Positions 29,566 to 64,000 of a stretch of DNA of 64,000 nucleotides are shown here, piece by piece (the stretch's first letter is position 1; every line of letters begins with the position of its first letter). Under the pieces are notes generated by a model. It was not told where the DNA came from and did no database searches. It saw only the letters and a program-made list of their open reading frames with translations. The position numbers and the translations under genes are program-made. The stretch is from a virus. The DNA is taken from positions 42,075 to 106,074 of the IMG/VR virus record IMGVR_UViG_3300042892_000474; one strand, 5' to 3'.

Positions 29566-29914
29566 AACTACACAAGATGATGATATTCTAATTCTTTGGG
29601 AGGCTCCTGTAATACAGGCTCCTGAGTTTCGTTTGTATTATGACGAAGCTACCGGTAAAGTTATTTGCTACACATGCGAAAAACTTGAAGGTAAGTATCT
29701 AGTAATCGATGCTATTACGTATGCACAAGCAAGACCGGACCTTCGAATTATCGACGGGCGTATATCTACTGCTAGTAATCATGCAATTGTATCTAAGTTA
29801 ATGCCACATCTTACCCAAGGTCAACTATGTGAAGCAGAGGACATCAGTATAGTAGTTTCATCAGAAGGCGACAACATTAATAGATGGAAACTAAACACAT
29901 ATGAGCTTAAATAA
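29558..29914 (+). CDS. Hypothetical protein (118 aa)
   Basis: Overlaps both neighbours; FRLYYDEATGKVI start resembles small tail-associated proteins. Confidence 0.6.
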   Translation: MTETTQDDDILILWEAPVIQAPEFRLYYDEATGKVICYTCEKLEGKYLVIDAITYAQARPDLRIIDGRISTASNHAIVSKLMPHLTQGQLCEAEDISIVVSSEGDNINRWKLNTYELK

Positions 29915-30854
29915 TATAGTTGATGTAGCCGATTTGGACTGCATCTACCTAAGCTATGACGAGCCACAAAAAGAAGAATTTTGGCTAAAAATTAAAAACA
30001 TGGTTCCTTGGGCAAAGCGGGTAGACGGAATCAAGGGTTCAGATGCGGCACACAAAGCTGCCGGCGCCGCATCAGACACTGAGCGGTTCATATTGATTGA
30101 CGGGGACAATATGCCCGATGAATCATTCTTCAATATGCAACTAGACTTTACAGGCAGAGATCCATCATACACCAAAGCACAATTTCGTTGGAAGGCAGTT
30201 AATGCTATCAACGGATTGCGTTATGGTAATGGTGGCATGAGTTCTTGGACAAAGACTTATGTTGCTAACATGAAGACACATGAAAATCAAAAAGACGGAG
30301 ATGCGGCTCGTATTGCTGACTTCTGTTTAGATAGCAAAGATAACTTGTATTGGGCAATGTATGATTGTTACAGCACAACATACCCCAATCATACTCCGTT
30401 TCAAGCTTGGAGAGCAGGCTTTAGAGAAGGAGTCAAGATGTGTCTTAACAAAGGTGAAGTTCCTTCAGTAGATGAGTTTAAAGAAACAGTTGCTAGTCGC
30501 AATTTGAACAACTTGACTATTTGGCAGAACGTAGGTGCGGATGTAGAGAACGGCATGTGGGCTATCTACGGTGCTAGACTCGGTACATACATGACTCTCT
30601 TAACTGATTGGGACGCACATAATGTTCAATGGTTTGACAATTACACGGTGTTATGGGAAGAACATATTAACCGAGATCCTGAACGTGAAGCAACATTGTT
30701 AGGCGCGGCATTACATGACAAGTTAGGTTTGCCAATGTGTACGCTAGGTAAAGAACAAAGTAAGTTCTTTAAGCGTCATTATCAAACAGACTATCATAAT
30801 CAAGGCCCGTTAGTCACTGAGATGGAAGTTATTCGAAAAATTGAAGGATGGTAA
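29901..30854 (+). CDS. GT-A (GT2-like) glycosyltransferase
   Basis: DCIYLSYDEP, TERFILIDGD (DxD), NGLRYGNGG, AWRAGFREGVK. Confidence 0.7.
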   Translation: MSLNNIVDVADLDCIYLSYDEPQKEEFWLKIKNMVPWAKRVDGIKGSDAAHKAAGAASDTERFILIDGDNMPDESFFNMQLDFTGRDPSYTKAQFRWKAVNAINGLRYGNGGMSSWTKTYVANMKTHENQKDGDAARIADFCLDSKDNLYWAMYDCYSTTYPNHTPFQAWRAGFREGVKMCLNKGEVPSVDEFKETVASRNLNNLTIWQNVGADVENGMWAIYGARLGTYMTLLTDWDAHNVQWFDNYTVLWEEHINRDPEREATLLGAALHDKLGLPMCTLGKEQSKFFKRHYQTDYHNQGPLVTEMEVIRKIEGW

Positions 30855-32263
30855 TGAGCGAAAGTCATGAACAAAAAAGAATCAAAGACATTAGGATCAA
30901 GATCGAAAACGAAACTGGTCCTACTTTTTGCCTTGCTAAATGGCATCATGTAACAATGTATTTGCAATCAGGAGAGACTCATAGTTGTTACCATCCTCAA
31001 CCTCATAAGATTCCTTTAGAAGAATTATATGATAACCCTTCTGCATTACATAACACACAGCAGAAGAAAGAAGAACGTAAACTAATGCTTGATGGTGGTA
31101 AGCCCACTGGATGCCAGTATTGCTGGAACATTGAAGCTATGGGTCCTGATTACATCAGTGACCGTCACATTCGTAACGCAAGTATCTTTACCGAAGAACG
31201 ATATGAACAAACCGCAAAGGGTCCGTGGAATCAAAACATCAACCCCGAGTACATCGAAATCAACTTTGGTAACGAATGTAACTTCAAGTGTGGCTACTGT
31301 CATCCTAAGTATAGTACAAGCTTCTACAAAGAGATTGAGCAGAATGGTCCTGTCACTAATGTGAAGAATCACCGTTGTGATATTGACTGGATGCGATTGT
31401 ATCAACGTGAAGATGACAATCCATACGTTGATGCGTTTTGGGAGTGGTGGCCAGAGATGCGTAAGACATTGAATATCATGCGTGTAACTGGTGGCGAACC
31501 TACACTACATAAGAGCACATGGACATTGCTTGAAAAGATTGAAGAAGATCCTATGCCCTGGTTAGAGTTGAACATCAACAGCAACTTGGGTACTAAGCCT
31601 ATTCTTATCGAGCGTTTATCAGACAAAGTTAAAAAACTTACAGGTGAAGGTAAGATTAAAAACTTTAAGTTGTTCACTAGTTTAGATACTTGGGGTGAAC
31701 GTGCTGAATACATTCGTACTGGATTAGATTTAGAGTTGTGGGAAAAGAATTTTCACACGTATCTAACTCGCACAGACAGTCCGATCACATTCATGATTAC
31801 ATTCAATATCTTTAGTGTAACTACATTTAAAAGTTTCTTAGAGAAGTTTATTGAATGGCGCAAGATATATGGATGGTATGACGATCCTATAAACCCACAA
31901 CATCGTGTGCGTTTTGATACACCTTATCTACGTGATCCTATTCAATACGATATGAACATTCTTCCTAAAGAAGAATTCATGCCTTACATGTACGAAGCAC
32001 TGAAATACATGGAAGAAAATACTGACGATAAACGCAGTGATGCTTTTAGTAGCATTGAGTACGAAAAATTTAAGCGTGTAGTTGACTACATGGCCGAGAC
32101 TGTTTATCCTGAAGAAAAGCTAATTGAAGGACGTAGAGATTTCTATAATTGGTTCAACGAATTAGATGAACGTAGAGAAGCAGATATGTTATCTGTATTT
32201 CCAGAAATGCTAAGTTTTTACAGACTATGCCAAGAGACAAATCAACTGAATCCATTTAAATGA
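30848..32263 (+). CDS. Radical SAM enzyme with N-terminal twitch/SPASM-like domain
   Basis: CNFKCGYC and TGGEP; N-terminal FCLAKW...SCYH...CQYC. Start may be the ATG at 30854. Confidence 0.85.
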   Translation: MVMSESHEQKRIKDIRIKIENETGPTFCLAKWHHVTMYLQSGETHSCYHPQPHKIPLEELYDNPSALHNTQQKKEERKLMLDGGKPTGCQYCWNIEAMGPDYISDRHIRNASIFTEERYEQTAKGPWNQNINPEYIEINFGNECNFKCGYCHPKYSTSFYKEIEQNGPVTNVKNHRCDIDWMRLYQREDDNPYVDAFWEWWPEMRKTLNIMRVTGGEPTLHKSTWTLLEKIEEDPMPWLELNINSNLGTKPILIERLSDKVKKLTGEGKIKNFKLFTSLDTWGERAEYIRTGLDLELWEKNFHTYLTRTDSPITFMITFNIFSVTTFKSFLEKFIEWRKIYGWYDDPINPQHRVRFDTPYLRDPIQYDMNILPKEEFMPYMYEALKYMEENTDDKRSDAFSSIEYEKFKRVVDYMAETVYPEEKLIEGRRDFYNWFNELDERREADMLSVFPEMLSFYRLCQETNQLNPFK

Positions 32264-41924: not shown

Positions 41925-43966
41925 AAACAGTTTATGTAAGTCAGTTAGACGACCCCACACTAGATGATTTTATCAACGTTGTTTCTAATGAGAAACCAAA
42001 CATAATTATATTACTATGTGAAACTGAATGGCATTCACGTGAGTTAACCATTGACATGGCTAACCTATTGAATGATAACAATATTAAACTAATAGTTACA
42101 GTTGGTGCATTTATTAGCGATTACTATGTTGAACAAACAAAATATTTTAACAATATAGAAATAATCCACTGGCACACATACTGGATTCATTGGGCGGTGC
42201 AATGTAGCAATCAGTTAGATTTCAATAGAACATATACCGATTTTAAATATCCTTATATTTGTTTGAATAATAAGAATTGGATTCATCGTTGTATGTTAGT
42301 AGATGAGTTAACTGGTCAGGGTTTACTAGATAAAGGTATTGTAACCTGGAATAGATTTCCTGCAAGAAATCCTAGCTTATATCAATTCAAACACTATAAT
42401 GATGAGGTCAGATTAATATCAGACGACTTTGAAACTAAACTAGATTCATTTTTGATTCCTGATGAATATCATCAATCATTTTTACATGTAATAGGTGAGG
42501 CTACTACAACAGTGCCTTTTATTACTGAGAAGACTTGCTTACCTATATTGTTTAAAAAGCCGTTTGTCATAATGGCTGATCAGTATTTTCATCAAAAGTT
42601 AGTAAACATGGGTTTTGAGTTATATGATGAGATTATAGATTACAGTTTCGACAGTGAGCCCGACATGCTTAAACGTGCTGAGGCTATTGCAGTAAACGTT
42701 AAACGTATATCAGAACAGAATACTACTGAGTTATATCAAAGAATTAAAGCCAAAGCTGAACGCAATTATAATAATTATATGCGTATATTCAAAGACATTA
42801 ACACTATTCCCGAGATTATCAAAGACCGTATATACGCAATAAACAACGGCTTAGTAACAAAACAAAATGCAACAGATGGTAGATATGTTCACATGTGTCA
42901 TTTAATGGTTAACCGTCATAAGATTATACATTTTGATATATGGGACAGTCAACTAGTAGAAAAAATCAACAATTTTATAAACGACAGGGGACGAATATCC
43001 AAGATAATATTCAACAGTGCAATAGAGTTTGAGTACAATAAAGCCGCCGGATCTATAACATTGTTTAATGAGCTAGTAGAGTTTGCTAAACTTTATAACA
43101 TTGAGTTTCATCTTATAACCGGTATTAATAAACATAATACAATATCTATATCTGATTACGTGAAAATTTACTATTGGCCAACCTTTTGGCTTACAATGGC
43201 ATTGAGTAGACTTTTAGTAAGTCCTAACTATCAAATGAATAATAGTATATGTTTAGATGTAGAGGATGTGCATGTGTCTAGAAATATTCCTATCAAATAT
43301 CCTTTTATTAGCATGAATAAAGCACCTAAGATTCATAGAGCTATAATGATGGATATGTTAGCTAAACATGATGTAATTGACAAGGGTGTAGTAATCTGGC
43401 GTGAGACTACTGAATCTTATCCATTTAAGTATTGGAACCAAGAGATTATGTTGCGTGACCAGTTAGATAGATTTGTAAGTCAAGAAAGATTACCATTAGA
43501 ATATGCAATGTCTTTCATGCAATTGGTTCCAGAAACTAGTGAAATATTATTTGGTCTTTCAGAAAAAACAGCAATGCCGTTGTTCTTTAATAAGCCGTTT
43601 TTAGTAGCGGGTTGTATGGGTTTCCATAAACAATTACAAGAATTAGGATTTAAATTATACGATGAATTGTTTGATTATACGTTTGATAGTGAACCTGACA
43701 TTGATATTAGGTATGACTTAATAGCACAGAATATCAATCGTTACACTGATAAAACTCCGGGGCAGTTAAAAGAACTATATAATAGTGTATTTGAAAAGTG
43801 TGTGTACAATAAGAAAATAGCTTTGAAACTAGCTACACAATCATCATTGATTCCCACAGTGTGGCAAGACTTAGTTAATCATGTTGTTATCAATAAGTAT
43901 CCAGATTATTCAGATGACATAAACAACTTTATTAGAAACAATGAACATAGATTTAAAGAAATATAA
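41921..43966 (+). CDS. Protein with two tandem GT10-like domains (copies 3 and 4)
   Basis: Two units: IHR...VIGEA...ITEKT...KPF...YDEIIDYSFDSEPD and IHR...LVPET...LSEKT...KPF...YDELFDYTFDSEPD. Confidence 0.6.
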   Translation: MKTVYVSQLDDPTLDDFINVVSNEKPNIIILLCETEWHSRELTIDMANLLNDNNIKLIVTVGAFISDYYVEQTKYFNNIEIIHWHTYWIHWAVQCSNQLDFNRTYTDFKYPYICLNNKNWIHRCMLVDELTGQGLLDKGIVTWNRFPARNPSLYQFKHYNDEVRLISDDFETKLDSFLIPDEYHQSFLHVIGEATTTVPFITEKTCLPILFKKPFVIMADQYFHQKLVNMGFELYDEIIDYSFDSEPDMLKRAEAIAVNVKRISEQNTTELYQRIKAKAERNYNNYMRIFKDINTIPEIIKDRIYAINNGLVTKQNATDGRYVHMCHLMVNRHKIIHFDIWDSQLVEKINNFINDRGRISKIIFNSAIEFEYNKAAGSITLFNELVEFAKLYNIEFHLITGINKHNTISISDYVKIYYWPTFWLTMALSRLLVSPNYQMNNSICLDVEDVHVSRNIPIKYPFISMNKAPKIHRAIMMDMLAKHDVIDKGVVIWRETTESYPFKYWNQEIMLRDQLDRFVSQERLPLEYAMSFMQLVPETSEILFGLSEKTAMPLFFNKPFLVAGCMGFHKQLQELGFKLYDELFDYTFDSEPDIDIRYDLIAQNINRYTDKTPGQLKELYNSVFEKCVYNKKIALKLATQSSLIPTVWQDLVNHVVINKYPDYSDDINNFIRNNEHRFKEI

Positions 43967-54678: not shown

Positions 54679-54721
54679 TTATAAATACATGGGAATTTTA
54701 AAGGATATCCCATGTTTATAA
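54679..54721 (+). promoter_or_regulatory. Perfect T4 late promoter TATAAATA (54680-54687) in the 5' arm of a hairpin covering the downstream start codon
   Basis: ACATGGGA (54687-54694) pairs with TCCCATGT (54708-54715); flanking TTATAA at both ends extends the stem; AAGGA RBS in the loop; ATG at 54712 in the 3' arm. Confidence 0.7.
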
Positions 54722-54810
54722 TCAGATTTTTCAAAAACCTAATCAAAGAATACAAATATCGCAAGCGCATAAAAGAACTACGCAAACGTGATCCATTTAT
54801 CTACAAGTGA
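54712..54810 (+). CDS. 32-aa basic peptide ending DPFIYK, absent from the ORF track
   Basis: MFIIRFFKNLIKEYKYRKRIKELRKRDPFIYK*; has an RBS and ends 5 nt before the carbamoyltransferase ATG. Confidence 0.75.
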   Translation: MFIIRFFKNLIKEYKYRKRIKELRKRDPFIYK

Positions 54811-54815
54811 TTTGA

Positions 54816-56294
54816 ATGAACTACGTAGGAATAAGCAACGGCTTCCATGACGCCGGTATCTCTGTTGTGGATTCGAATGGAAACATTCTATTTGCGGGTC
54901 ATAGTGAGCGTTATAGCAAGAAAAAGCATGACGCTGAACTATGTTCTGAACTAGCGATAGACGCAGCCAAAACTCTAACTGGTGAATGCGAAGTTCATTA
55001 TTATGAACGTCCTTGGATGACTGCATTACGTCAATTAAGAGCAGGACAAAAATTAGATTTACGCACTGCTAAAATGCGTATAGGTAAATCTATTCTCAAT
55101 GTGTTTAACAACCCAAAAGTCGTTACACACAATCATCATTTGAGTCATGCCGCCGCTGGCTTTCAAACAAGTCCATACAATGATGCCACTGTTGTAGTAA
55201 TTGATGCTATCGGTGAGATAGATTGTATCTCTATATGGGATGCTTGGTACGATGAAAATGGCTATGCCCAATACAAGAAACTTTGGACTAAAAAATATCC
55301 ACACAGCATTGGTTTATATTATAGTGCAATGACTCAACACGTTGGTCTACGTCCATTAGATGAAGAATACATTCTAATGGGTATGGCTGCGTACGGTAAA
55401 CCTATACATTTTAATACCATTGAATCTAAGTTGTTAGAAAATAGCACCAAAATAGATTTCAAAGAAAATTTACACATTGGTGTCCCTGAAAACTTTTTAG
55501 AAGGTGCCAATGAAATGGACGTTGCTGCCAGTGCTCAAGCATTAGCAGAATATCTAATCAACGCAGTGATGGCAAAAGCTCGTATGTTGGGCAAGAGTCG
55601 TAACTTGGTATATGGTGGAGGAGTCGCACTTAACTGTTTAGCAAATAGAAACTTAGGTGATTACTTCAATGACATGTGGATAGTACCTAATCCCGGAGAC
55701 TGTGGCTCTAGTTTAGGTGCCGCCGCTTTAGGATATGGCAAAAAGTTGAACTGGATTGATGCTTTCTTAGGGCACGACATTCCAGGCAATTATCCCAGTA
55801 ATCGTATCATTGATGAACTAGTTAAGACTAAAATAGTAGGTGTAGCCTCAGGTCGTGCAGAGTTTGGTCCACGTGCATTGGGTAATAGGTCATTGCTAGC
55901 AGACCCCAGAGGTGATACAATAAAGGATACTGTAAATGAAATTAAACGCAGACAAAAATTCAGACCATTTGCGCCCATTATTTTGGAGGAGCATGTTCAC
56001 AATTATTTTGACATGCCTCGCAATTGGAGTGACAGTAGGTATATGCAAGTCATCGCTCGTTGCAGGCATCCTCAGTTATTTCCTGCTATCGTTCATCATG
56101 ACGGGACTAGTCGTGTCCAGACTGTGCCAAAAGATGGAAGCGGAGTCAGAGAACTCCTAGAGAAATGGTATGTATTGACTGGATGCCCTATACTGTTAAA
56201 CACCTCTCTTAATATCAGAGGAGAGCCAATGGTAAATGACAGACTTGATGCTGATAGATTCGAAAAATTGTACAATGTTAAAGTGATATCATAA
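54816..56294 (+). CDS. O-carbamoyltransferase (NodU/CmcH/TobZ family)
   Basis: HDAG, ERYS, HHLSHAA, DAIGE, MGMAAYG, GGVALN, EFGPRALGNRS, FRPFAP, LNTSLN. Confidence 0.93.
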   Translation: MNYVGISNGFHDAGISVVDSNGNILFAGHSERYSKKKHDAELCSELAIDAAKTLTGECEVHYYERPWMTALRQLRAGQKLDLRTAKMRIGKSILNVFNNPKVVTHNHHLSHAAAGFQTSPYNDATVVVIDAIGEIDCISIWDAWYDENGYAQYKKLWTKKYPHSIGLYYSAMTQHVGLRPLDEEYILMGMAAYGKPIHFNTIESKLLENSTKIDFKENLHIGVPENFLEGANEMDVAASAQALAEYLINAVMAKARMLGKSRNLVYGGGVALNCLANRNLGDYFNDMWIVPNPGDCGSSLGAAALGYGKKLNWIDAFLGHDIPGNYPSNRIIDELVKTKIVGVASGRAEFGPRALGNRSLLADPRGDTIKDTVNEIKRRQKFRPFAPIILEEHVHNYFDMPRNWSDSRYMQVIARCRHPQLFPAIVHHDGTSRVQTVPKDGSGVRELLEKWYVLTGCPILLNTSLNIRGEPMVNDRLDADRFEKLYNVKVIS

Positions 56295-59200
56295 ATGCTA
56301 AGAGATGTTTTTTATTACGGAAAAAAACCCAATGTTCATCCTAAGGAACAACCTGCTAAAAATCTAGTAGATGCTAGAAAGAAAGCAACGACAGAACATT
56401 TTTGGGTTATAAATGAATTCTGTGATTACACCAAATTCGATTGGAATTTTGATTTTGAGTTTTTATCTGACGGTGATGTTTGGGCAGAAGAACACAATAA
56501 TGTGTGGCCAAGTAAGCACCAGAAAGATAGCGGTACCTGGCTGTGTACAAAGAAGCGTAGTGATGTTATTGTGTATCGGTGCGATGTTGAACCTCTCAAG
56601 AGGAAGAATATAGTATCTGATAATTGGAAGATATTAGAAAACATCAATATAGAAAAGTGGGACTTTAGTTGGCACCCAGATCCAACTGACCCTCCGTTTG
56701 TTTACAAGTGGGGTTCTAAGTATGCGCCTGCAGAACTAAACACTTGTTTAGAATATACGGTAGAAGGTGCTACTGATATAAAGTACATGAACACCATTGT
56801 GGAATTGTTACCTAATTGGGATTGCATTGTTGAAGTACAAAAAGTAGATCAGATTCGATGGGATATGAGTTGGAGACCTGATCCAATGGATCCTCCATTC
56901 ATATATGTATGGGGTAACAAATATGTAGATGGTAAGCTAAAATCAACATTAGAATATCATGTGCCGAATGCAACTGAAAAGAAGTATATGAATGAATTAG
57001 TTCCAGTGTTACCTGAATGGGACCGCTGGGATATTCTACATGACATAGACAAAACATCATTTGATTTCTGCTGGAGACCTGACCCGCGTGAACCTGATTA
57101 TATCTATGTATTCGGTAATGAGCAATACGAAGGTGGGGTAATGCCTACCGTAGAGTATCGTATGCCTTTGGCTACTGAAAGAAAATATCTGTACGATATG
57201 AAAGCTAAGTTGAGTCCTCATCCAGAGAAGTTTGAGCACCTAGAAAAAGCAGATGGTATAGATTATAGTTGGGTACCTGATCCAACTGCACCTCCTTACA
57301 TCTATGCATGGGGAAATCAATGGAACAAACCTGAAGATAAAGTATCGATACAATATGTAGTTGATGGTGCTACTGAATACAGATACATGGAACAACGTAG
57401 TAAACGTAAGCCATCAATGGACAATTGGATAGTACCGGACAATGTTGATACAACTGGATTTGACTTTTCATGGGAACCTAGTCCAGCAGACCCTGCATAC
57501 ATATACGAGTTTGGCACTCAATGGCAAAAGACAGGTGGACCTCGCTATATAGTAGAGGGAGCAACAGAAGTTAAGTATGTTGAATTTCAAAAAGTAAAAG
57601 CATTATCTACTACAGCTAATTGGTCTATCCCTACTAACTGTGATGTAACCGGATTTGATTTTAGCTGGCATCCCGATAGCACAAGCCCACCATATACATA
57701 TCACTTTGCTACTCAATGGGCATTAACAGGCGGACCTATATATAACATGGAAGGGGCAACAGAAGTTAAGTATGTTGAACATCCATCTGCTATAGCATTA
57801 CCAAGTAAAGAAAATTGGGAAGTTCCTAGTTATATTGATAGCACACAATTTGATTTCTCGTGGCATCCATATGTAGAAGATCAACCATATGTCTATCAGT
57901 TCGGCACACAACATCAAAAGACAGGTGGCCCTCGGTATGTTACCCCTGGGGTAATTCCTTCGAGTCCAATAAAATATGTTGATACTCGTATCATTAGCTC
58001 TGTTCGAAAGCCAAACAAAAATAACTTTGCGATATTGAACAACTACAAGATCAAAAATTTCGATTGGTCGTGGCACCCAGATGACACCGATGAACCATAC
58101 ATTTATGTATTTGGTAATACACAACATCCGGCAGAAGTTATGCCCACGATTGAATACGCTGTCGCAGGCGCAACTCAGGTAAAGTATGTTAGTAATGTAG
58201 TAGCAACATTGGATGTTGATATGACTAACTGGGAAGTACCTTCGGATATAGATACAACTGACTTTGACTTCACTTGGAAACCTAATCCTAAAGATCCGGC
58301 GTTTATATATCAGTTCGGTACACAATGGCAAAAGACCGGCGGACCTCGTTACGTAGTACCTGACGCTGACGAAGTTAAGTATGTGACCACACATAAAGTA
58401 AAGGCTTTAGTTTCACGTGATCACTGGACCGTACCTACTAATATTGAAGTAACTGATTTTGATTTTAGCTGGCACCCGGACGATACAAGTCCTCCTTATA
58501 TATATTATTTTGCCACTCAGTGGGCATTGAGTGGCGGCCCGATATACACTGTACCCGGGGCGACAGAAGTTAAGTATGTCGAAGACCTTGTGGCAAGAGC
58601 CCTGCCGGACAAAACTAATTGGGAAATTCCCGAGTCAGTTGACAAAGAATTGTTTGATTACTCATGGCATCCGTACGTTGAGGATGAACCATATATCTAT
58701 CAGTTCGGCACACAACATCAAAAGACAGGTGGACCTCGGTATATAACACCCGGAACTATTGCTTCTAGTCCTATAAAATATATTGATACACGTATCATAC
58801 GGTCTATCAGAAAACCTAGCAAGAAAAACTTTGCTATATTAAACAACTACAAAATCAAAGAGTTTGACTGGTCATGGCATCCTGATGAAACAGATGAACC
58901 ATATATTTACGTATTCGGGAACAATCAGTATCCTCCTGAAATAATGCCTACGATTGAATATGTTGTTCCTGGGGCTAAACAAATAAAATATGTATATGAT
59001 GTGATTGCAACTTTAGGAGAAGATAAAACCAATTGGGTAATTTCTAGTCCTATAGACGAATCAGCATTTGATTTTAGTTGGAAACCTAATCCCAAAGACC
59101 CTCCCTACATATATCGTTGGGGTAATGCGTATGTTAGTAATAAATATAAGCCTACCGTAGAATATCATGTATCTGACGCAACAGAAATCAAATATATGGA

Positions 59201-62200
59201 TGATTTGGTTAATGTAACTCCTGAGTGGGATCGATGGATCATACCAAGCAATGTAGATGTTACTGGGTTCGATTTTAGTTGGAGACCTGACCCATTAGAA
59301 CCAAATTTAATTTGGCAATTCGGAACACAGTGGCAAAAGACAGGTGGGCCTACTTACACTATGCCTGACGCAGTAGACATAAAGTATATAGACTTTCAAA
59401 AAGTTAGGATTTTGCCTAACTCAACTGCAAGTAACTGGGAGCTTCCTAAAACAGTTGACGTTAGTAACTTTGATTTTAGCTGGCATCCAGACGATACTAG
59501 TCCTCCATACATCTATCATTTTGCTACTCAGTGGGCGTTAACTGGTGGACCAGTGTATACTGTCCCCGGAGCTACTGAAACAAAATACTTAGAAGAACCA
59601 AATGCGGTAGCTCTAGTAAACAAAGATAATTGGGAAGTACCTGACAACATAGACGTTGATGCATTTGATTTTTCTTGGCATCCATATGTAGAAGATCAAC
59701 CATATATATACCAGTTTGGTACTCAGTGGCAAAAGACAGGTGGACCTCGTTATATTACACCGGGTGTTATTCCTTCAAGTCCCGTAAAGTATATTGACAC
59801 ACGTATTCTTAAGGCAACTAGAAAAGTAAGTAAGAAAAACTTTGCAATTTTAAACAACTACAAAATCAAAGAATTTGATTGGTCATGGCACCCGGACGAA
59901 ACTGATGAGCCATACATTTATGTATTTGGTAATACACAACATCCGGCCGAAATAATGCCTACAGTTGAATATGTAGTTACAGGCGCAAAGCAAATCAAAT
60001 ACATCAATGATGTTATTGCGGTGTTAGACATTGATATGACTAACTGGGAAGTACCGTCAGACACTGATACTTCTGCATTTGATTTCAGTTGGAAACCTAA
60101 TCCCAAAGATCCAGCGTTTATATATCAATTTGGTACGCAATGGCAAAAGACAGGTGGCCCTCGTTATGTAGTACCCGGTGCTGACGAAGTTAAGTACGTG
60201 ACAACACATCAAGTAACTGCATTGCCTACTAAAAATAACTGGACAGTTCCTACGTATGTTGATACTACTGGATTTGATTTTAGTTGGCACCCAGACGATA
60301 CTAGTCCTCCATACATCTATCATTTTGCTACTCAGTGGGCATTGACTGGCGGACCTATATATACTGTATCTGGCGCTACCGAAACAAAATACTTAGAAGA
60401 ACCAAGCGCAGTTGCATTGCCTAATAAAGATAATTGGGAAGTACCTGACTATGTTGATATTAGTGATTTTGACTTTTCATGGCACCCGTACGTAGAAGAT
60501 CAACCATATGTCTATCAGTTCGGCACTCAATGGCAGAAGACAGGTGGACCTCGGTATGTTACCCCTGGGGTAATTCCTTCGAGTCCTATCAAGTATATTG
60601 ATACACGTATTCTAAAATCTAAAAGATTACCTAACAAAAAGAACTTTGCAATTTTAAACAACTACAAGATCAAGGATTTTGATTGGGCATGGCATCCAGA
60701 TGACACTGATGAACCATACATTTATGTATTTGGTAATACACAGCACCCGGCCGAAATAATGCCCACAGTTGAATATGTAGTGCCAGGAGCAAAACAAATC
60801 AAATACATCAATGATATTGTCGCTACATTAGATGTTGACATGACTTGTTGGAATATACCCAACAATGTAGACATAACCGATTTTGATTTCAGTTGGAAGC
60901 CTAATCCTAAAGATCCTGCTTTCATATATGAGTTTGGCACTCAATGGCAAAAGACAGGTGGCCCTCGTTATGTAGTACCTGATGCAACAGAAGTCAAATA
61001 TGTTACTACCCAACATGTAACAGCTTTAGCTAATCATGACAATTGGACGTTGCCTGCTAACATTGACGTAACTGATTTTGACTTTAGCTGGCACCCAGAT
61101 GCAACAAGTCCTCCTTATAATTATCACTTTGCAACTCAGTGGGCATTGAGCGGTGGTCCTATCTATAAGATGAATGGAGCTATTGCAACTAAGTACATGG
61201 ATTCTCCAAGTGCAAAAGCATTACCCAATAAAGATAATTGGGAAATACCTACTGACATTTCAGAAATTGAATTTGATTTCTCATGGCATCCTTACGCAGA
61301 AGACGATCCATACATATATCAGTTTGGTACTCAATGGCAAAAGACAGGTGGACCTCGGTACGTGACCCCGGGTGCGAAAAGAAGTGCACCAGTCAAGTAC
61401 ATTGATACACGTATTCTTACTGCAAAGAAATTGCCTACTAAGGACAAATTTACAGTATTAAACAACTTATCAGTTGCATCATTTGATTGGTCATGGCACC
61501 CGGATGAAACTGACGGAGAGTTTATATATGTGTTTGGTAACACTCAATATTCTGCCGAAGTCATGCCTACGATTGAATATCGTTCAAGTCCTTATGCAGA
61601 AAAAGTAAAGTATGTCAATGACGTTAAAGCCGTTCTTGCAACTGATCTTAAAGATTGGGAGATACCTACTAACATTGATGTAAGTGAGTTTGACTTTAGT
61701 TGGAAACCTAATCCAAATGATCCTCCTTATATCTATCAATTCGGTACTCAATGGCAAAAGACAGGTGGACCTAAGTATTCAGTAGAAGGTGCTACTGAAA
61801 TCAAATATGTTGAAGGATCTACCGCAAAATCAATTGCTTCTAAAAAGCAATGGATCGTTCCTGCAACTATTGATAGCACACAGTTTGACTTCAGTTGGCA
61901 TCCTGACGAAACTGAAGAACTATATGTGTATCAATTCGGTACACAATGGCAGAAGACAGGTGGACCTAAGTATATTACTACAGGCTCTACTAGTGATACC
62001 CCGGTAAAGTATTGTGCTGATGTTAAAGCAAGACAATTGCCAAACAAGAAAAACTTTAATACGCTGATAGAGCATGAGATAAAAGAGTTTGATTATTCTT
62101 GGCATCCTGATGACAATGACAAGCCATACATTTATGTATTCGGTAACAACCAATATTCTGCTGAAGTAATGCCTACAGTTGAATATATAGTGCCAGGTGC

Positions 62201-64000
62201 AGTGCAAACAAAATACGTGCATGATGTAGTCGCCACGTTGAATAACAACAAAAAGAATTGGGAAATACCTAAGGATGTAATTGCAGAGAGTTTTGACTTC
62301 AGTTGGTTACCTCATCCAAAAGACCCTCCTTATATCTATCAGTTTGGTACTCAATGGCAAAAGACAGGTGGCCCTCGTTACGTAGTACCTGAGGCAACAG
62401 ATATTAAGTATATCACTGAATCAGTTGCTAAACGAAAGCAAGTAAAGACTAATTGGGTTATTCCTGCAGGAGTAGATACATCTACCTTCGACTTTAGTTG
62501 GCACCCAGATGAGTTAGCACCACCGTACATTTATCAGTTTGGTACAGTGACTGATGATAAAGATGGCCCTAGATATGTGCCAACAATCAACAACAGCGAA
62601 GTTGTGTTCAAACAACGAATATATAAACCAATAGAAGATGATGCTCCTTTAGTTGAAGATGTTACCATTGGTCAGTATTACATTGAAACAACACTAGAAG
62701 ATTTGGTAAATAAACATCCTAATGAAATATTCTGGGCATTGAATCCAAGCATTGATTATAAGTTATTTGATTTCGCATGGAGACCTGAGATTGTAACAAT
62801 CTCTTGGGAATCTGATTACGTTCACGTATTTGGTTCACCCGACTCACCTCTAACACAAACATACTTTGTTAACGCAAAGTCGTACATGTCAGGAAAGAAA
62901 GATTTTAAGTTTGTCGAAAACATTAAGTTGAGCGAAGAATATCTATCTACCTTGTTCGTAAAACCAGACATGTTCTTTGTTGACCGTGGTAACAGTGAAT
63001 CATCTGAACGTTTTGCATTATTAAAGAGTAAGTTTGGTAATATACAAAAGACCCGATATCTAAACAGTTGGGTTGATACCATCAATCGTTGTATTAATCG
63101 AAGCAGTACAGAACTATGCTGGATATTAAACAGCGAATTAGATTACAGTGATTTTGACTTCCACTACTATCCTAATCCATGGCAGATGAAAATGGTTCAT
63201 GTATTTGGGACCCAGTGGTCACACTGGGGTACAACCTTTATAGTTAACCGTGACACATTTTCTGCTGATACAAAATACATCAAGATTATTGAACACTTGA
63301 GCAATCTTAATTTTGTTAAGGATAGAATTGCTAAAGCTACTAACGTGTTGTATGATGTTTATTACATAGATCACGGTAACTCAGATAACTTGCCTAGCAC
63401 AAATGTTGTTCCGTACGACACTGATTACTTTACTACTTTCAAAAATATATTGTCAAAACTTCCTGAAAAGAAAGAACAATATATTTGGATAGCAAGTACA
63501 GTCTGTGACTATGAAGGTTTTGACTTTACTTATATTTGTGATCCATTTGCACGTGAACAGTTGCATGTATTCCCTAGCGACAGGCAAAAATTTGGTGATA
63601 CATTCTTAGTGAATGTTAACAAGTTGCGTGAGTTGATCGATAACATGGAGTCATTGAAAGATTATGACAAGATAAACTTTAACCAACATCAACGTACAAA
63701 ACGTTTAGCACCTCCTACTATCGTAACTGAGTTTGATACTCATGTTGCAAGCGTAATGCAAGACTTTGACTTCCCTTATGCTGTGTTTGTAACTGAGGAT
63801 AACAAAGACATAGTTGCTGTCGAGGAAGAACCAATGAGTTTATGGAATGTCGAGTCTAAAAACATTCTTATCACTAGCACCGGTGGTACACGCATCGTTG
63901 TTCCTAAAGAAGCAAAACAATATGTTGAGACACAACTATATGACTACCCATACATTAAAACATCGTCACGATTAGCAAGAAGTAATCCTTTAGACATTGT
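56295..64000 (+). CDS. Giant repeat protein (>2568 aa, 3' truncated): degenerate GT-A-like domains flanking 30 FDFSW-x-P repeats; absent from the ORF track
   Basis: ATG directly follows the TAA of the carbamoyltransferase. Manual translation (MLRDVFYYGKKP...RSNPLDI) found no in-frame stop up to base 64000. Confidence 0.9.
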   Translation, partial: MLRDVFYYGKKPNVHPKEQPAKNLVDARKKATTEHFWVINEFCDYTKFDWNFDFEFLSDGDVWAEEHNNVWPSKHQKDSGTWLCTKKRSDVIVYRCDVEPLKRKNIVSDNWKILENINIEKWDFSWHPDPTDPPFVYKWGSKYAPAELNTCLEYTVEGATDIKYMNTIVELLPNWDCIVEVQKVDQIRWDMSWRPDPMDPPFIYVWGNKYVDGKLKSTLEYHVPNATEKKYMNELVPVLPEWDRWDILHDIDKTSFDFCWRPDPREPDYIYVFGNEQYEGGVMPTVEYRMPLATERKYLYDMKAKLSPHPEKFEHLEKADGIDYSWVPDPTAPPYIYAWGNQWNKPEDKVSIQYVVDGATEYRYMEQRSKRKPSMDNWIVPDNVDTTGFDFSWEPSPADPAYIYEFGTQWQKTGGPRYIVEGATEVKYVEFQKVKALSTTANWSIPTNCDVTGFDFSWHPDSTSPPYTYHFATQWALTGGPIYNMEGATEVKYVEHPSAIALPSKENWEVPSYIDSTQFDFSWHPYVEDQPYVYQFGTQHQKTGGPRYVTPGVIPSSPIKYVDTRIISSVRKPNKNNFAILNNYKIKNFDWSWHPDDTDEPYIYVFGNTQHPAEVMPTIEYAVAGATQVKYVSNVVATLDVDMTNWEVPSDIDTTDFDFTWKPNPKDPAFIYQFGTQWQKTGGPRYVVPDADEVKYVTTHKVKALVSRDHWTVPTNIEVTDFDFSWHPDDTSPPYIYYFATQWALSGGPIYTVPGATEVKYVEDLVARALPDKTNWEIPESVDKELFDYSWHPYVEDEPYIYQFGTQHQKTGGPRYITPGTIASSPIKYIDTRIIRSIRKPSKKNFAILNNYKIKEFDWSWHPDETDEPYIYVFGNNQYPPEIMPTIEYVVPGAKQIKYVYDVIATLGEDKTNWVISSPIDESAFDFSWKPNPKDPPYIYRWGNAYVSNKYKPTVEYHVSDATEIKYMDDLVNVTPEWDRWIIPSNVDVTGFDFSWRPDPLEPNLIWQFGTQWQKTGGPTYTMPDAVDIKYIDFQKVRILPNSTASNWELPKTVDVSNFDFSWHPDDTSPPYIYHFATQWALTGGPVYTVPGATETKYLEEPNAVALVNKDNWEVPDNIDVDAFDFSWHPYVEDQPYIYQFGTQWQKTGGPRYITPGVIPSSPVKYIDTRILKATRKVSKKNFAILNNYKIKEFDWSWHPDETDEPYIYVFGNTQHPAEIMPTVEYVVTGAKQIKYINDVIAVLDIDMTNWEVPSDTDTSAFDFSWKPNPKDPAFIYQFGTQWQKTGGPRYVVPGADEVKYVTTHQVTALPTKNNWTVPTYVDTTGFDFSWHPDDTSPPYIYHFATQWALTGGPIYTVSGATETKYLEEPSAVALPNKDNWEVPDYVDISDFDFSWHPYVEDQPYVYQFGTQWQKTGGPRYVTPGVIPSSPIKYIDTRILKSKRLPNKKNFAILNNYKIKDFDWAWHPDDTDEPYIYVFGNTQHPAEIMPTVEYVVPGAKQIKYINDIVATLDVDMTCWNIPNNVDITDFDFSWKPNPKDPAFIYEFGTQWQKTGGPRYVVPDATEVKYVTTQHVTALANHDNWTLPANIDVTDFDFSWHPDATSPPYNYHFATQWALSGGPIYKMNGAIATKYMDSPSAKALPNKDNWEIPTDISEIEFDFSWHPYAEDDPYIYQFGTQWQKTGGPRYVTPGAKRSAPVKYIDTRILTAKKLPTKDKFTVLNNLSVASFDWSWHPDETDGEFIYVFGNTQYSAEVMPTIEYRSSPYAEKVKYVNDVKAVLATDLKDWEIPTNIDVSEFDFSWKPNPNDPPYIYQFGTQWQKTGGPKYSVEGATEIKYVEGSTAKSIASKKQWIVPATIDSTQFDFSWHPDETEELYVYQFGTQWQKTGGPKYITTGSTSDTPVKYCADVKARQLPNKKNFNTLIEHEIKEFDYSWHPDDNDKPYIYVFGNNQYSAEVMPTVEYIVPGAVQTKYVHDVVATLNNNKKNWEIPKDVIAESFDFSWLPHPKDPPYIYQFGTQWQKTGGPRYVVPEATDIKYITESVAKRKQVKTNWVIPAGVDTSTFDFSWHPDELAPPYIYQFGTVTDDKDGPRYVPTINNSEVVFKQRIYKPIEDDAPLVEDVTIGQYYIETTLEDLVNKHPNEIFWALNPSIDYKLFDFAWRPEIVTISWESDYVHVFGSPDSPLTQTYFVNAKSYMSGKKDFKFVENIKLSEEYLSTLFVKPDMFFVDRGNSESSERFALLKSKFGNIQKTRYLNSWVDTINRCINRSSTELCWILNSELDYSDFDFHYYPNPWQMKMVHVFGTQWSHWGTTFIVNRDTFSADTKYIKIIEHLSNLNFVKDRIAKATNVLYDVYYIDHGNSDNLPSTNVVPYDTDYFTTFKNILSKLPEKKEQYIWIASTVCDYEGFDFTYICDPFAREQLHVFPSDRQKFGDTFLVNVNKLRELIDNMESLKDYDKINFNQHQRTKRLAPPTIVTEFDTHVASVMQDFDFPYAVFVTEDNKDIVAVEEEPMSLWNVESKNILITSTGGTRIVVPKEAKQYVETQLYDYPYIKTSSRLARSNPLDI
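56620..62600 (+). repeat. 30 tandem coding repeats of 195-210 nt with an 804-nt four-unit higher-order period
   Basis: FDFSW-like anchors at e.g. 57654, 57849, 58059, 58263, 58458 and 59469, 60273, 61077; spacings 195+210+204+195 = 804. Confidence 0.92.

Follow-up and report, generated by a model that had tools for sequence, protein, structure and literature searches.

What is encoded by a 7.7-kb reading frame that consists largely of tandem repeats, and from what were these repeats made? The question is raised by the 3' end of a 64,000-nucleotide stretch of DNA (hereafter, the window), which covers positions 42,075 to 106,074 of the IMG/VR virus record IMGVR_UViG_3300042892_000474, from an uncultured T4-like giant phage. 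An original prediction, derived from the letters of the window and the translations of its open reading frames (ORFs), had described a giant protein whose 30 repeats were a piece of a catalytically dead glycosyltransferase (GT) domain, amplified into an array. As shown below, profile comparisons and structure models firmly support the origin of the repeat from the core of a GT-A fold, the fold from which the modules at both ends of the protein also appear to be derived. The function proposed for the whole protein, that of an enzyme acting late in a glycan pathway, is a tentative prediction.

Architecture of the giant protein and its repeat array

The giant gene (coordinates of all features are collected in Table 1) runs as an open frame of 2,568 codons without a stop through the end of the window, which is also the end of the 106,074-base viral contig (completeness 26% by CheckV). 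Since the contig ends inside the open frame, the gene is truncated by assembly and not by biology. The missing end was recovered from two metagenome proteins: P0002 overlapped the last 484 residues of the window protein with zero mismatches and added 216 residues, and P0394, encoded on an independent 16-kb contig, was identical in 2,567 of the 2,568 residues. By this overlap, the complete protein is 2,784 residues long. Having no hydrophobic segment and an isoelectric point of 5.0, it is predicted to be soluble.

The protein consists of a short N-terminal module, the repeat array, and a constant C-terminal block of about 670 residues, in which the modules D1, D2, D3, the linker L4, and the domain D5 follow one another. 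The motif scan found 33 cores of the F-D-F-S-W type, 30 of which are spaced by 62-70 residues and make up the array, and a MAFFT alignment of the units gave the signature FDFSW-x-P ... PYIY-x-FG ... KY, so that the 30 tandem repeats of the original prediction were confirmed and the repeat architecture is firmly established. Four unit types could be distinguished, in the order DDDD ABCD ABCD D ABCD ABCD ABCD A A D A plus a terminal variant, whereby the ABCD super-repeat comprises 268 amino acids. The array is acidic (net charge -94) and rich in aromatic residues (15.7%).

At the DNA level, units of the same type are only 64–87% identical, and because of this divergence Tandem Repeats Finder detected no repeats in the DNA. 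The synonymous sites among the units are near saturation (proportion of synonymous differences, pS, 0.5-0.8), while the ratio of nonsynonymous to synonymous substitution (dN/dS) is only 0.05-0.3, which indicates that the duplications are old and that every copy has been kept under purifying selection. A collapsed or inflated assembly is thus very unlikely, the DNA being diverged and the protein conserved.

Origin of the repeat from a GT-A domain

The kinship between the repeat and the longer modules was evident from profile-profile comparison. In hhalign, the repeat matched the N-terminal module with a probability of 97%, D1 with 98%, D2 with 96%, D5 with 74%, and D3 with 40%. The modules are related to one another as well: 98.5% for D1 and D2, 96% for the N-terminal module and D1, and 97.9% for D2 and D3, the latter over the full length (107 columns). 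Linker L4 is the exception, with no kinship to the other modules detected (probability of at most 1% against each). The core of the repeat had been noticed earlier within the N-terminal domain and in three longer domains near positions 62690, 62960, and 63350; the former is the 108-residue N-terminal module, and the latter are D1, D2, and D3. The stretch of D2 that aligns to the repeat begins with the strand at the position of the metal-binding DxD motif of GT-A enzymes and continues through the F-D-F loop to the next two strands, i.e., the repeat corresponds to the strand normally bearing DxD and the two strands that follow.

Structure models gave the same picture. An AlphaFold2 model of a one-repeat homologue (841 amino acids, 122-sequence alignment) reached a mean predicted local distance difference test score (pLDDT) of 84.8, and in it both D2 and D5 are modelled as GT-A, or nucleoside diphosphate (NDP)-sugar-transferase, folds, with a Rossmann-like alpha/beta/alpha domain in GT-A strand order. 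Foldseek against the PDB matched this model to SunS, PcManGT, WrtF, and Mimivirus R699 with probabilities of 0.99-1.0, and further to the multi-GT-A proteins LH3 and K4 chondroitin polymerase. A fold match of the homologue model was modestly above the background of 7-8 stated for the tool, and agreed with the Foldseek result.

The model of eight window repeats (residues 1249-1785, 45-sequence alignment) was still more confident (pLDDT 93.1, predicted template modelling score 0.67). It consists entirely of beta strands, and a 12-residue strand bridges successive units. Foldseek found no match to this model in the PDB at E ≤0.001, and its stalk-like neighbours (SHIRT and the Sap S-layer protein, both with E >0.8, and protocadherin) were weak. 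An unbiased comparison of the eight-repeat model with all 48,161 chains returned only 20 matches, all of them weak. Seventeen of these are GT-A or nucleotidyl-transferase folds, among them B4GALNT1, STIV A197, CesA, Chs1, MurU, FKRP, SpsA, LARGE1, IspD, MobA, UGPase, R699, HAS, and GfsA. In each of the 17 alignments, a single repeat unit is superposed over about 58–70 residues with a root-mean-square deviation of 2.3-3.4 Å. Despite the weak scores, the GT-A-heavy composition of this list does not look like chance. Together, the hhalign kinship and the fold-search list support the view of the repeat as a piece cut from a GT-A domain, in line with the likeness to GT-A folds that had been proposed: the two complete modules are modelled as GT-A domains, and single repeats align almost only to GT-A chains.

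None of the searches brought up a described unrelated family to which the repeat might belong instead. Pfam returned only noise at E up to 1, a PDB sequence-profile search with the profile of 122 homologues gave no match at E up to 5, and neither PHROGs nor the named clusters of the ESM Atlas yielded a family to which repeats or modules could be assigned. As for a carbohydrate-binding function, the Pfam results held no carbohydrate-binding module family and the ESM Atlas no named look-alike; for structural virion families, the giant protein had no match in PHROGs or Pfam.

The DxD position and the terminal domain D5

An important question is whether any of the modules could still be catalytically active. 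The repeats, the N-terminal module, D1, and D3 have neither a DxD nor an ExD motif. In D2, the strand at the DxD position reads NSELD, and its E and D are near-invariant; this acidic E-x-D is ambiguous as a metal motif. The absence of DxD from the longer modules, as originally claimed, therefore holds for the N-terminal module, D1, and D3, with D2 as the ambiguous case.

The last residues of the window, PLDI, had been taken for the start of another GT-like domain, possibly an active one lying beyond the contig end. In full-length homologues they are indeed the first strand of a further domain, D5, whose other 216 residues are cut off by the end of the contig. D5 is a paralogue of the protein encoded at 29901-30854 in the same window (25% identity over 233 residues). 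The GT-like domain is therefore present, but without an intact DxD: in the joint alignment, the DGD of the paralogue family corresponds to FAKLK in D5. Otherwise, D5 and the DGD family share their conserved residues, namely the RVDG strand end, Q-x-D, N-x-x-N-x-L-x-YG, the DF pair, and WR..FRE.

The stand-alone relatives also occur in a cultured virus, Ralstonia phage RsoM2USA, in which gp350 is the 317-amino-acid orthologue of the ORF 29901 protein (39% identity) and gp348 is a D5-like protein of 233 amino acids that retains DGD. The homology of the stand-alone proteins, all annotated as hypothetical, to D5 is supported by E values of 1e-9 to 1e-16. With DGD kept in the paralogues and in gp348, D5 is a DxD-less derivative of a DGD family, and the loss of DxD from the terminal domain is, from these alignments, a firm conclusion. 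D5 and D2 are at the same time the best-conserved parts of the giant protein and hold most of its invariant columns, so that D5 looks re-tooled rather than obviously dead. GT-A enzymes without DxD exist. By analogy, a metal-independent or re-tooled site may be equally possible, and the "catalytically dead" modules of the original prediction are unproven.

The wider family of D5, collected with a profile of D5 and its paralogues, comprises 1,401 clusters at 50% identity. Some distant relatives are fused to radical S-adenosylmethionine (SAM), PfkB kinase, or RmlD/epimerase domains, and just 3 of 68 reach Pfam Glycos_transf_2 (PF00535); these fusions and matches place the wider family in sugar-nucleotide contexts.

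The ORF 29901 protein is itself extremely conserved, with more than 8,000 matching database proteins, the best 120 of which are 82-100% identical. In the window it is followed by a radical-SAM gene (29901-32263), the same pair recurs in RsoM2USA together with a second DGD protein (gp350-gp349-gp348), and the metagenome protein P0362 fuses the DGD protein with the radical-SAM protein. From this gene order, the two look like a conserved enzyme couple.

Distribution and copy-number variation

Homologues of the constant C-terminal part form 870 clusters in the size class of 30-1,411 amino acids and 384 in that of 1,412-4,494 amino acids, all of them unnamed or "hypothetical"; in metagenomes of jumbo phages, the family is common. 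For the comparison of the family, 75 loci were fetched from IMG/VR. All members begin with the N-terminal module (about 108 residues), continue with an array that varies, and end in the constant tail of about 670 residues. Complete genes encode from 841 (L031, one repeat) to 3,330 amino acids (P0400), the number of repeats ranges from 1 to about 36, and each counted motif adds about 61 residues to the protein (r = 0.96). The number and order of the units differ even among close relatives: the closest complete relative, L002, has 28 repeats against 30 in the window, with tails that are 87% identical. The variation in copy number is thus firmly established, which bears out the earlier suggestion that the repeat number might vary.

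The BFVD database holds two members, both uncharacterised proteins of an "uncultured Caudovirales phage". A tblastn search with D2-D3-L4 against 50,697 phage records gave no match; only D5 and its paralogue found relatives in RsoM2USA. No paper on the repeat-protein family was found in the literature searched. A publication on moraphages (PMC12619734) was considered and set aside, as it concerns another lineage and not this family.

Genomic context

The stop codon of a NodU/CmcH-type O-carbamoyltransferase gene abuts the start codon of the giant gene. Apart from its Pfam domains (Table 1), the product belongs to the PHROG "Nol-like carbamoyltransferase" (E 1e-90). The co-occurrence of the repeat with its gene neighbourhood, which had been put forward for checking, was found for this gene: in 50 of 60 loci, the homologous giant gene is immediately preceded by a carbamoyltransferase gene (gaps of 4-14 nt), and the pairing is firm. 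The two proteins were also submitted to complex prediction, using the N-terminal module and D5 of the closest complete relative with alignments for each; the score of 0.00, obtained without controls, speaks neither for nor against binding.

One copy of the T4 late-promoter consensus, TATAAATA, precedes the carbamoyltransferase gene. The sequence is strongly depleted in the window (1 copy in 64 kb against 11 expected from shuffles) and recurs at -131/-134 in each of the three closest relatives. Between this copy and the carbamoyltransferase start lies a small open frame of 32 codons (about 54713-54811) with a very basic product.

The carbamoyltransferase and giant genes are preceded by a 27-kb glycan island, in which the genes upstream encode radical-SAM and B12-radical-SAM proteins, a uridine diphosphate (UDP)-glucose dehydrogenase, an epimerase, and an aminotransferase. 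The downstream side is known from relatives. In L002, a Gram-negative porin gene (L002:15896-16777; Pfam Porin_4, E 2e-18) is located about 3 kb downstream of the giant gene; judged by its sequence it may be a phage-borne outer-membrane protein, and it hints at a Gram-negative host. Farther on (L002:18500-21426), a MoxR-type AAA+ ATPase gene adjoins one for a DUF2201 metallopeptidase/VWA protein. In a 360-kb relative (L066:14266-16821), the downstream genes are entirely different and include GNAT acetyltransferases and a DNA methylase fusion, and the giant gene thus marks the conserved 3' border of the glycan island.

Outside the window, a collagen-like fibre with Gly-X-Ser repeats and a 160-residue N-terminal module is encoded on the minus strand (G000:C1:8447-17456). 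This module occurs in up to 11 open frames of 441-3,010 amino acids per related genome, which points to a large repertoire of paralogous fibres built on one attachment module. The idea that the repeat number of the giant protein tracks the length of the giant fibre was dropped: in four genomes, the repeat count and the longest fibre frame (6/1600, 7/3010, 21/1679, and 30/3002) show no simple relation. Moreover, with up to 11 paralogues matching the fibre module per genome, orthologues cannot be assigned for such a comparison.

Table 1. Features of the giant-gene locus, in window coordinates.
Feature	Residues	Position	Strand	Basis
Stand-alone D5 paralogue, 317 amino acids, canonical DGD		29901..30854	+	BLASTP E 1e-9; joint alignment; own-genome search
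TATAAATA, T4 late-promoter consensus		54680..54687	+	129 nt upstream of carbamoyltransferase start codon
NodU/CmcH-type O-carbamoyltransferase gene		54816..56294	+	Pfam Carbam_trans_N and Carbam_trans_C, E 1e-35 to 1e-48
Giant repeat-protein gene		56295..63998	+	2,568 of 2,784 codons present; complete form, P0394
N-terminal module, cut-down GT-A-like unit, in all homologues	1-108	56295..56618	+	Alignments; hhalign
Array of 30 repeats, 62-70 amino acids each	109-2113	56619..62633	+	Motif scan; alignment
D1, partial GT-A-like unit	2114-2219	62634..62951	+	hhalign
D2, complete GT-A-like nucleotide-binding domain	2220-2349	62952..63341	+	Fold model
D3, full-length D2 homologue	2350-2461	63342..63677	+	hhalign
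L4, beta-rich linker	2462-2563	63678..63983	+	Predicted secondary structure
First strand (NPLDI) of terminal GT-A-like domain D5		63984..63998	+	P0002 and P0394 continue identical sequence; fold from homologue model

Proposed function and alternative explanations

The reading that we favour, at somewhat less than an even chance, is that the giant protein is a late enzyme of a glycan pathway, in which GT-A-derived modules would form a working C-terminal block and the repeats a non-catalytic spacer or binding arm. The whole protein would be built of modules derived from one GT-A fold. The repeats, having no nucleotide-binding half of this fold, would be non-catalytic and form a rod or arm of variable length, and the conserved C-terminal block would be the working end, with D2 offering E-x-D at the metal-motif position and D5 its lysine-bearing FAKLK instead of DxD. 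This end might bind or transfer a nucleotide-activated sugar or a related phospho-activated group. Made late, in one transcription unit with the upstream carbamoyltransferase, the giant protein would carry out with it the last steps of the preceding glycan island, whereby the arm might serve for spacing, or might hold a long glycan or a glycosylated fibre substrate in a multivalent manner. That the protein is functional is indicated by the low dN/dS values, the invariant columns of D2 and D5, and the residues shared by D5 and the DGD family; the link to the pathway comes from the adjacent carbamoyltransferase, the upstream sugar-nucleotide and radical-SAM genes, and the fusions of D5 relatives.

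Several observations weigh against the proposed enzymatic role. A repeat number that varies from 1 to about 36 is less usual for enzymes than for surface or fibre proteins, DxD is wholly lost from D5, and no part of the protein has a Pfam, PHROG, or NCBI-type name or a PDB sequence match. In addition, only 9 of 41 distinct loci have the TATAAATA box ahead of the gene, and its conservation is limited to the closest relatives, so that late expression remains a weak inference.

A less likely alternative is that the giant protein decorates the virion, the repeat rod being a particle stalk (head fibre, whisker, or side fibre) and the end modules being lectin-like, sugar-binding tips for attachment to the host or the particle rather than enzymes. 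The giant gene closes a block that opens with tail-fibre genes, a T4-late-type box lies upstream, and the stand-alone relatives in RsoM2USA come just after the tail sheath and baseplate genes. The confidently predicted, extended, all-beta array with its stalk-like Foldseek neighbours, weak as they are, would also suit a fibre, as would a repeat number that varies between close relatives. However, no structural PHROG or Pfam family matched, the array is predicted with confidence as a monomer, unlike the intertwined trimeric fibres, the gene is tightly coupled to that of an enzyme, and the best-conserved parts are enzyme-fold domains with invariant polar residues.

Quite unlikely, in our estimate, is a pure pseudo-enzyme in which all modules are dead and the array either binds the glycan during its synthesis or brings the enzymes of the island into order. 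The array would set the chain length as the coiled coil does in WbdD/WbbB, and capping would fall to the carbamoyltransferase. Consistent with this, no module has a canonical DxD, and between the constant head and the constant tail lies a rod whose length differs from strain to strain; the glycan island is variable too. A candidate capping enzyme is encoded by the conserved neighbouring gene, and O-antigen terminators are an established case of the ruler principle (PMC11231755). Against it, D2 retains its acidic E-x-D, and D5 all of the remaining residues that are conserved throughout the family. An active site cannot be recognised in the N-terminal module, which is only 108 residues long, and the repeats are beta-structured, not a coiled coil, with no membrane anchor seen; the repeat count, moreover, did not follow the longest fibre gene in the four genomes compared.

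A bolder version, which we regard as a long shot, combines the ruler with the favoured enzymatic role: the array would be a ruler or template of enzyme-fold fragments, each unit holding one segment of a growing glycan or of a glycosylated fibre, and its copy number would encode the length or valency of the product. If true, it would be a beta-repeat counterpart, evolved inside a virus, of the O-antigen coiled-coil rulers, with the product built and capped by the C-terminal transferase block and the neighbouring carbamoyltransferase.

Finally, an assembly artefact or a decaying gene (a mis-assembled array or a non-functional repeat expansion), which might be suspected from the truncation at the contig end and the tendency of long repeats to break assemblies, is refuted by the 7.7-kb frame without a stop, the conservation of the protein over diverged DNA with its low dN/dS, the independent contig encoding the same protein with one residue different, and the more than 1,200 homologous clusters, and has practically no probability left.

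Comparison with known systems

The closest likeness in domain composition is to the tandem GT-A proteins human LH3/PLOD3, Mimivirus R699 (9dyt), E. coli K4 chondroitin polymerase (K4CP; 2z86), Pasteurella heparosan synthase 2 (PmHS2), and LARGE1, which have several GT-A domains per chain, as in the giant protein, and which head the list of Foldseek matches to the one-repeat homologue. One of these domains is accessory or has a second function, and some of the proteins hold a non-catalytic GT-A copy. In contrast to the giant protein, they contain no arrayed fold fragments and carry DxD in their catalytic domains; a relation to the giant protein at the sequence level could not be detected. K4CP, PmHS2, and LARGE1 have two complete GT-A domains, each with DxD, whereas D2 and D5 are complete but neither has the canonical motif. 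Thus, multi-domain GT-A proteins are a known kind, while an array of GT-A fold fragments is new and unprecedented.

In WbdD/WbbB, a coiled-coil spacer between catalytic modules sets the glycan length by its own length (PMC11231755), and the likeness to the giant protein lies in a spacer that separates modules within one protein or complex. The spacer of these membrane-associated systems is an alpha-helical coiled coil with a proven terminating enzyme at the distal end, whereas the spacer of the giant protein is modelled as all-beta without helices and its 108-residue N-terminal module has no recognised enzyme fold or motif. The SHIRT repeats of streptococcal surface proteins (7avh) and the Sap S-layer protein also consist of small beta domains in an extended array with strain-variable copy number. 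Nevertheless, both are chance-level Foldseek neighbours, have another fold origin, and belong to secreted surface proteins.

The stand-alone DGD proteins (ORF 29901-30854, RsoM2USA gp350 and gp348) are true homologues of D5, adjoin radical-SAM genes, and are located after structural modules; unlike the giant protein, they are single-domain, keep DGD, and have neither repeats nor the N-terminal module. Together with its DGD paralogue, the D5 domain with lysine in place of DxD offers a matched pair for studying how a GT-A enzyme is re-tooled.

Overall, the giant protein is a clean natural case of an enzyme-fold fragment turned into an autonomously folding repeat. Three strands were taken from within a GT-A domain and multiplied to as many as about 36 copies, which purifying selection has maintained; this is an unusual route of protein evolution, and the array is a ready test case for models of fold fragments. 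The family is, moreover, a conserved and highly variable component beside the sugar-synthesis island in freshwater jumbo phages of a large and abundant group.

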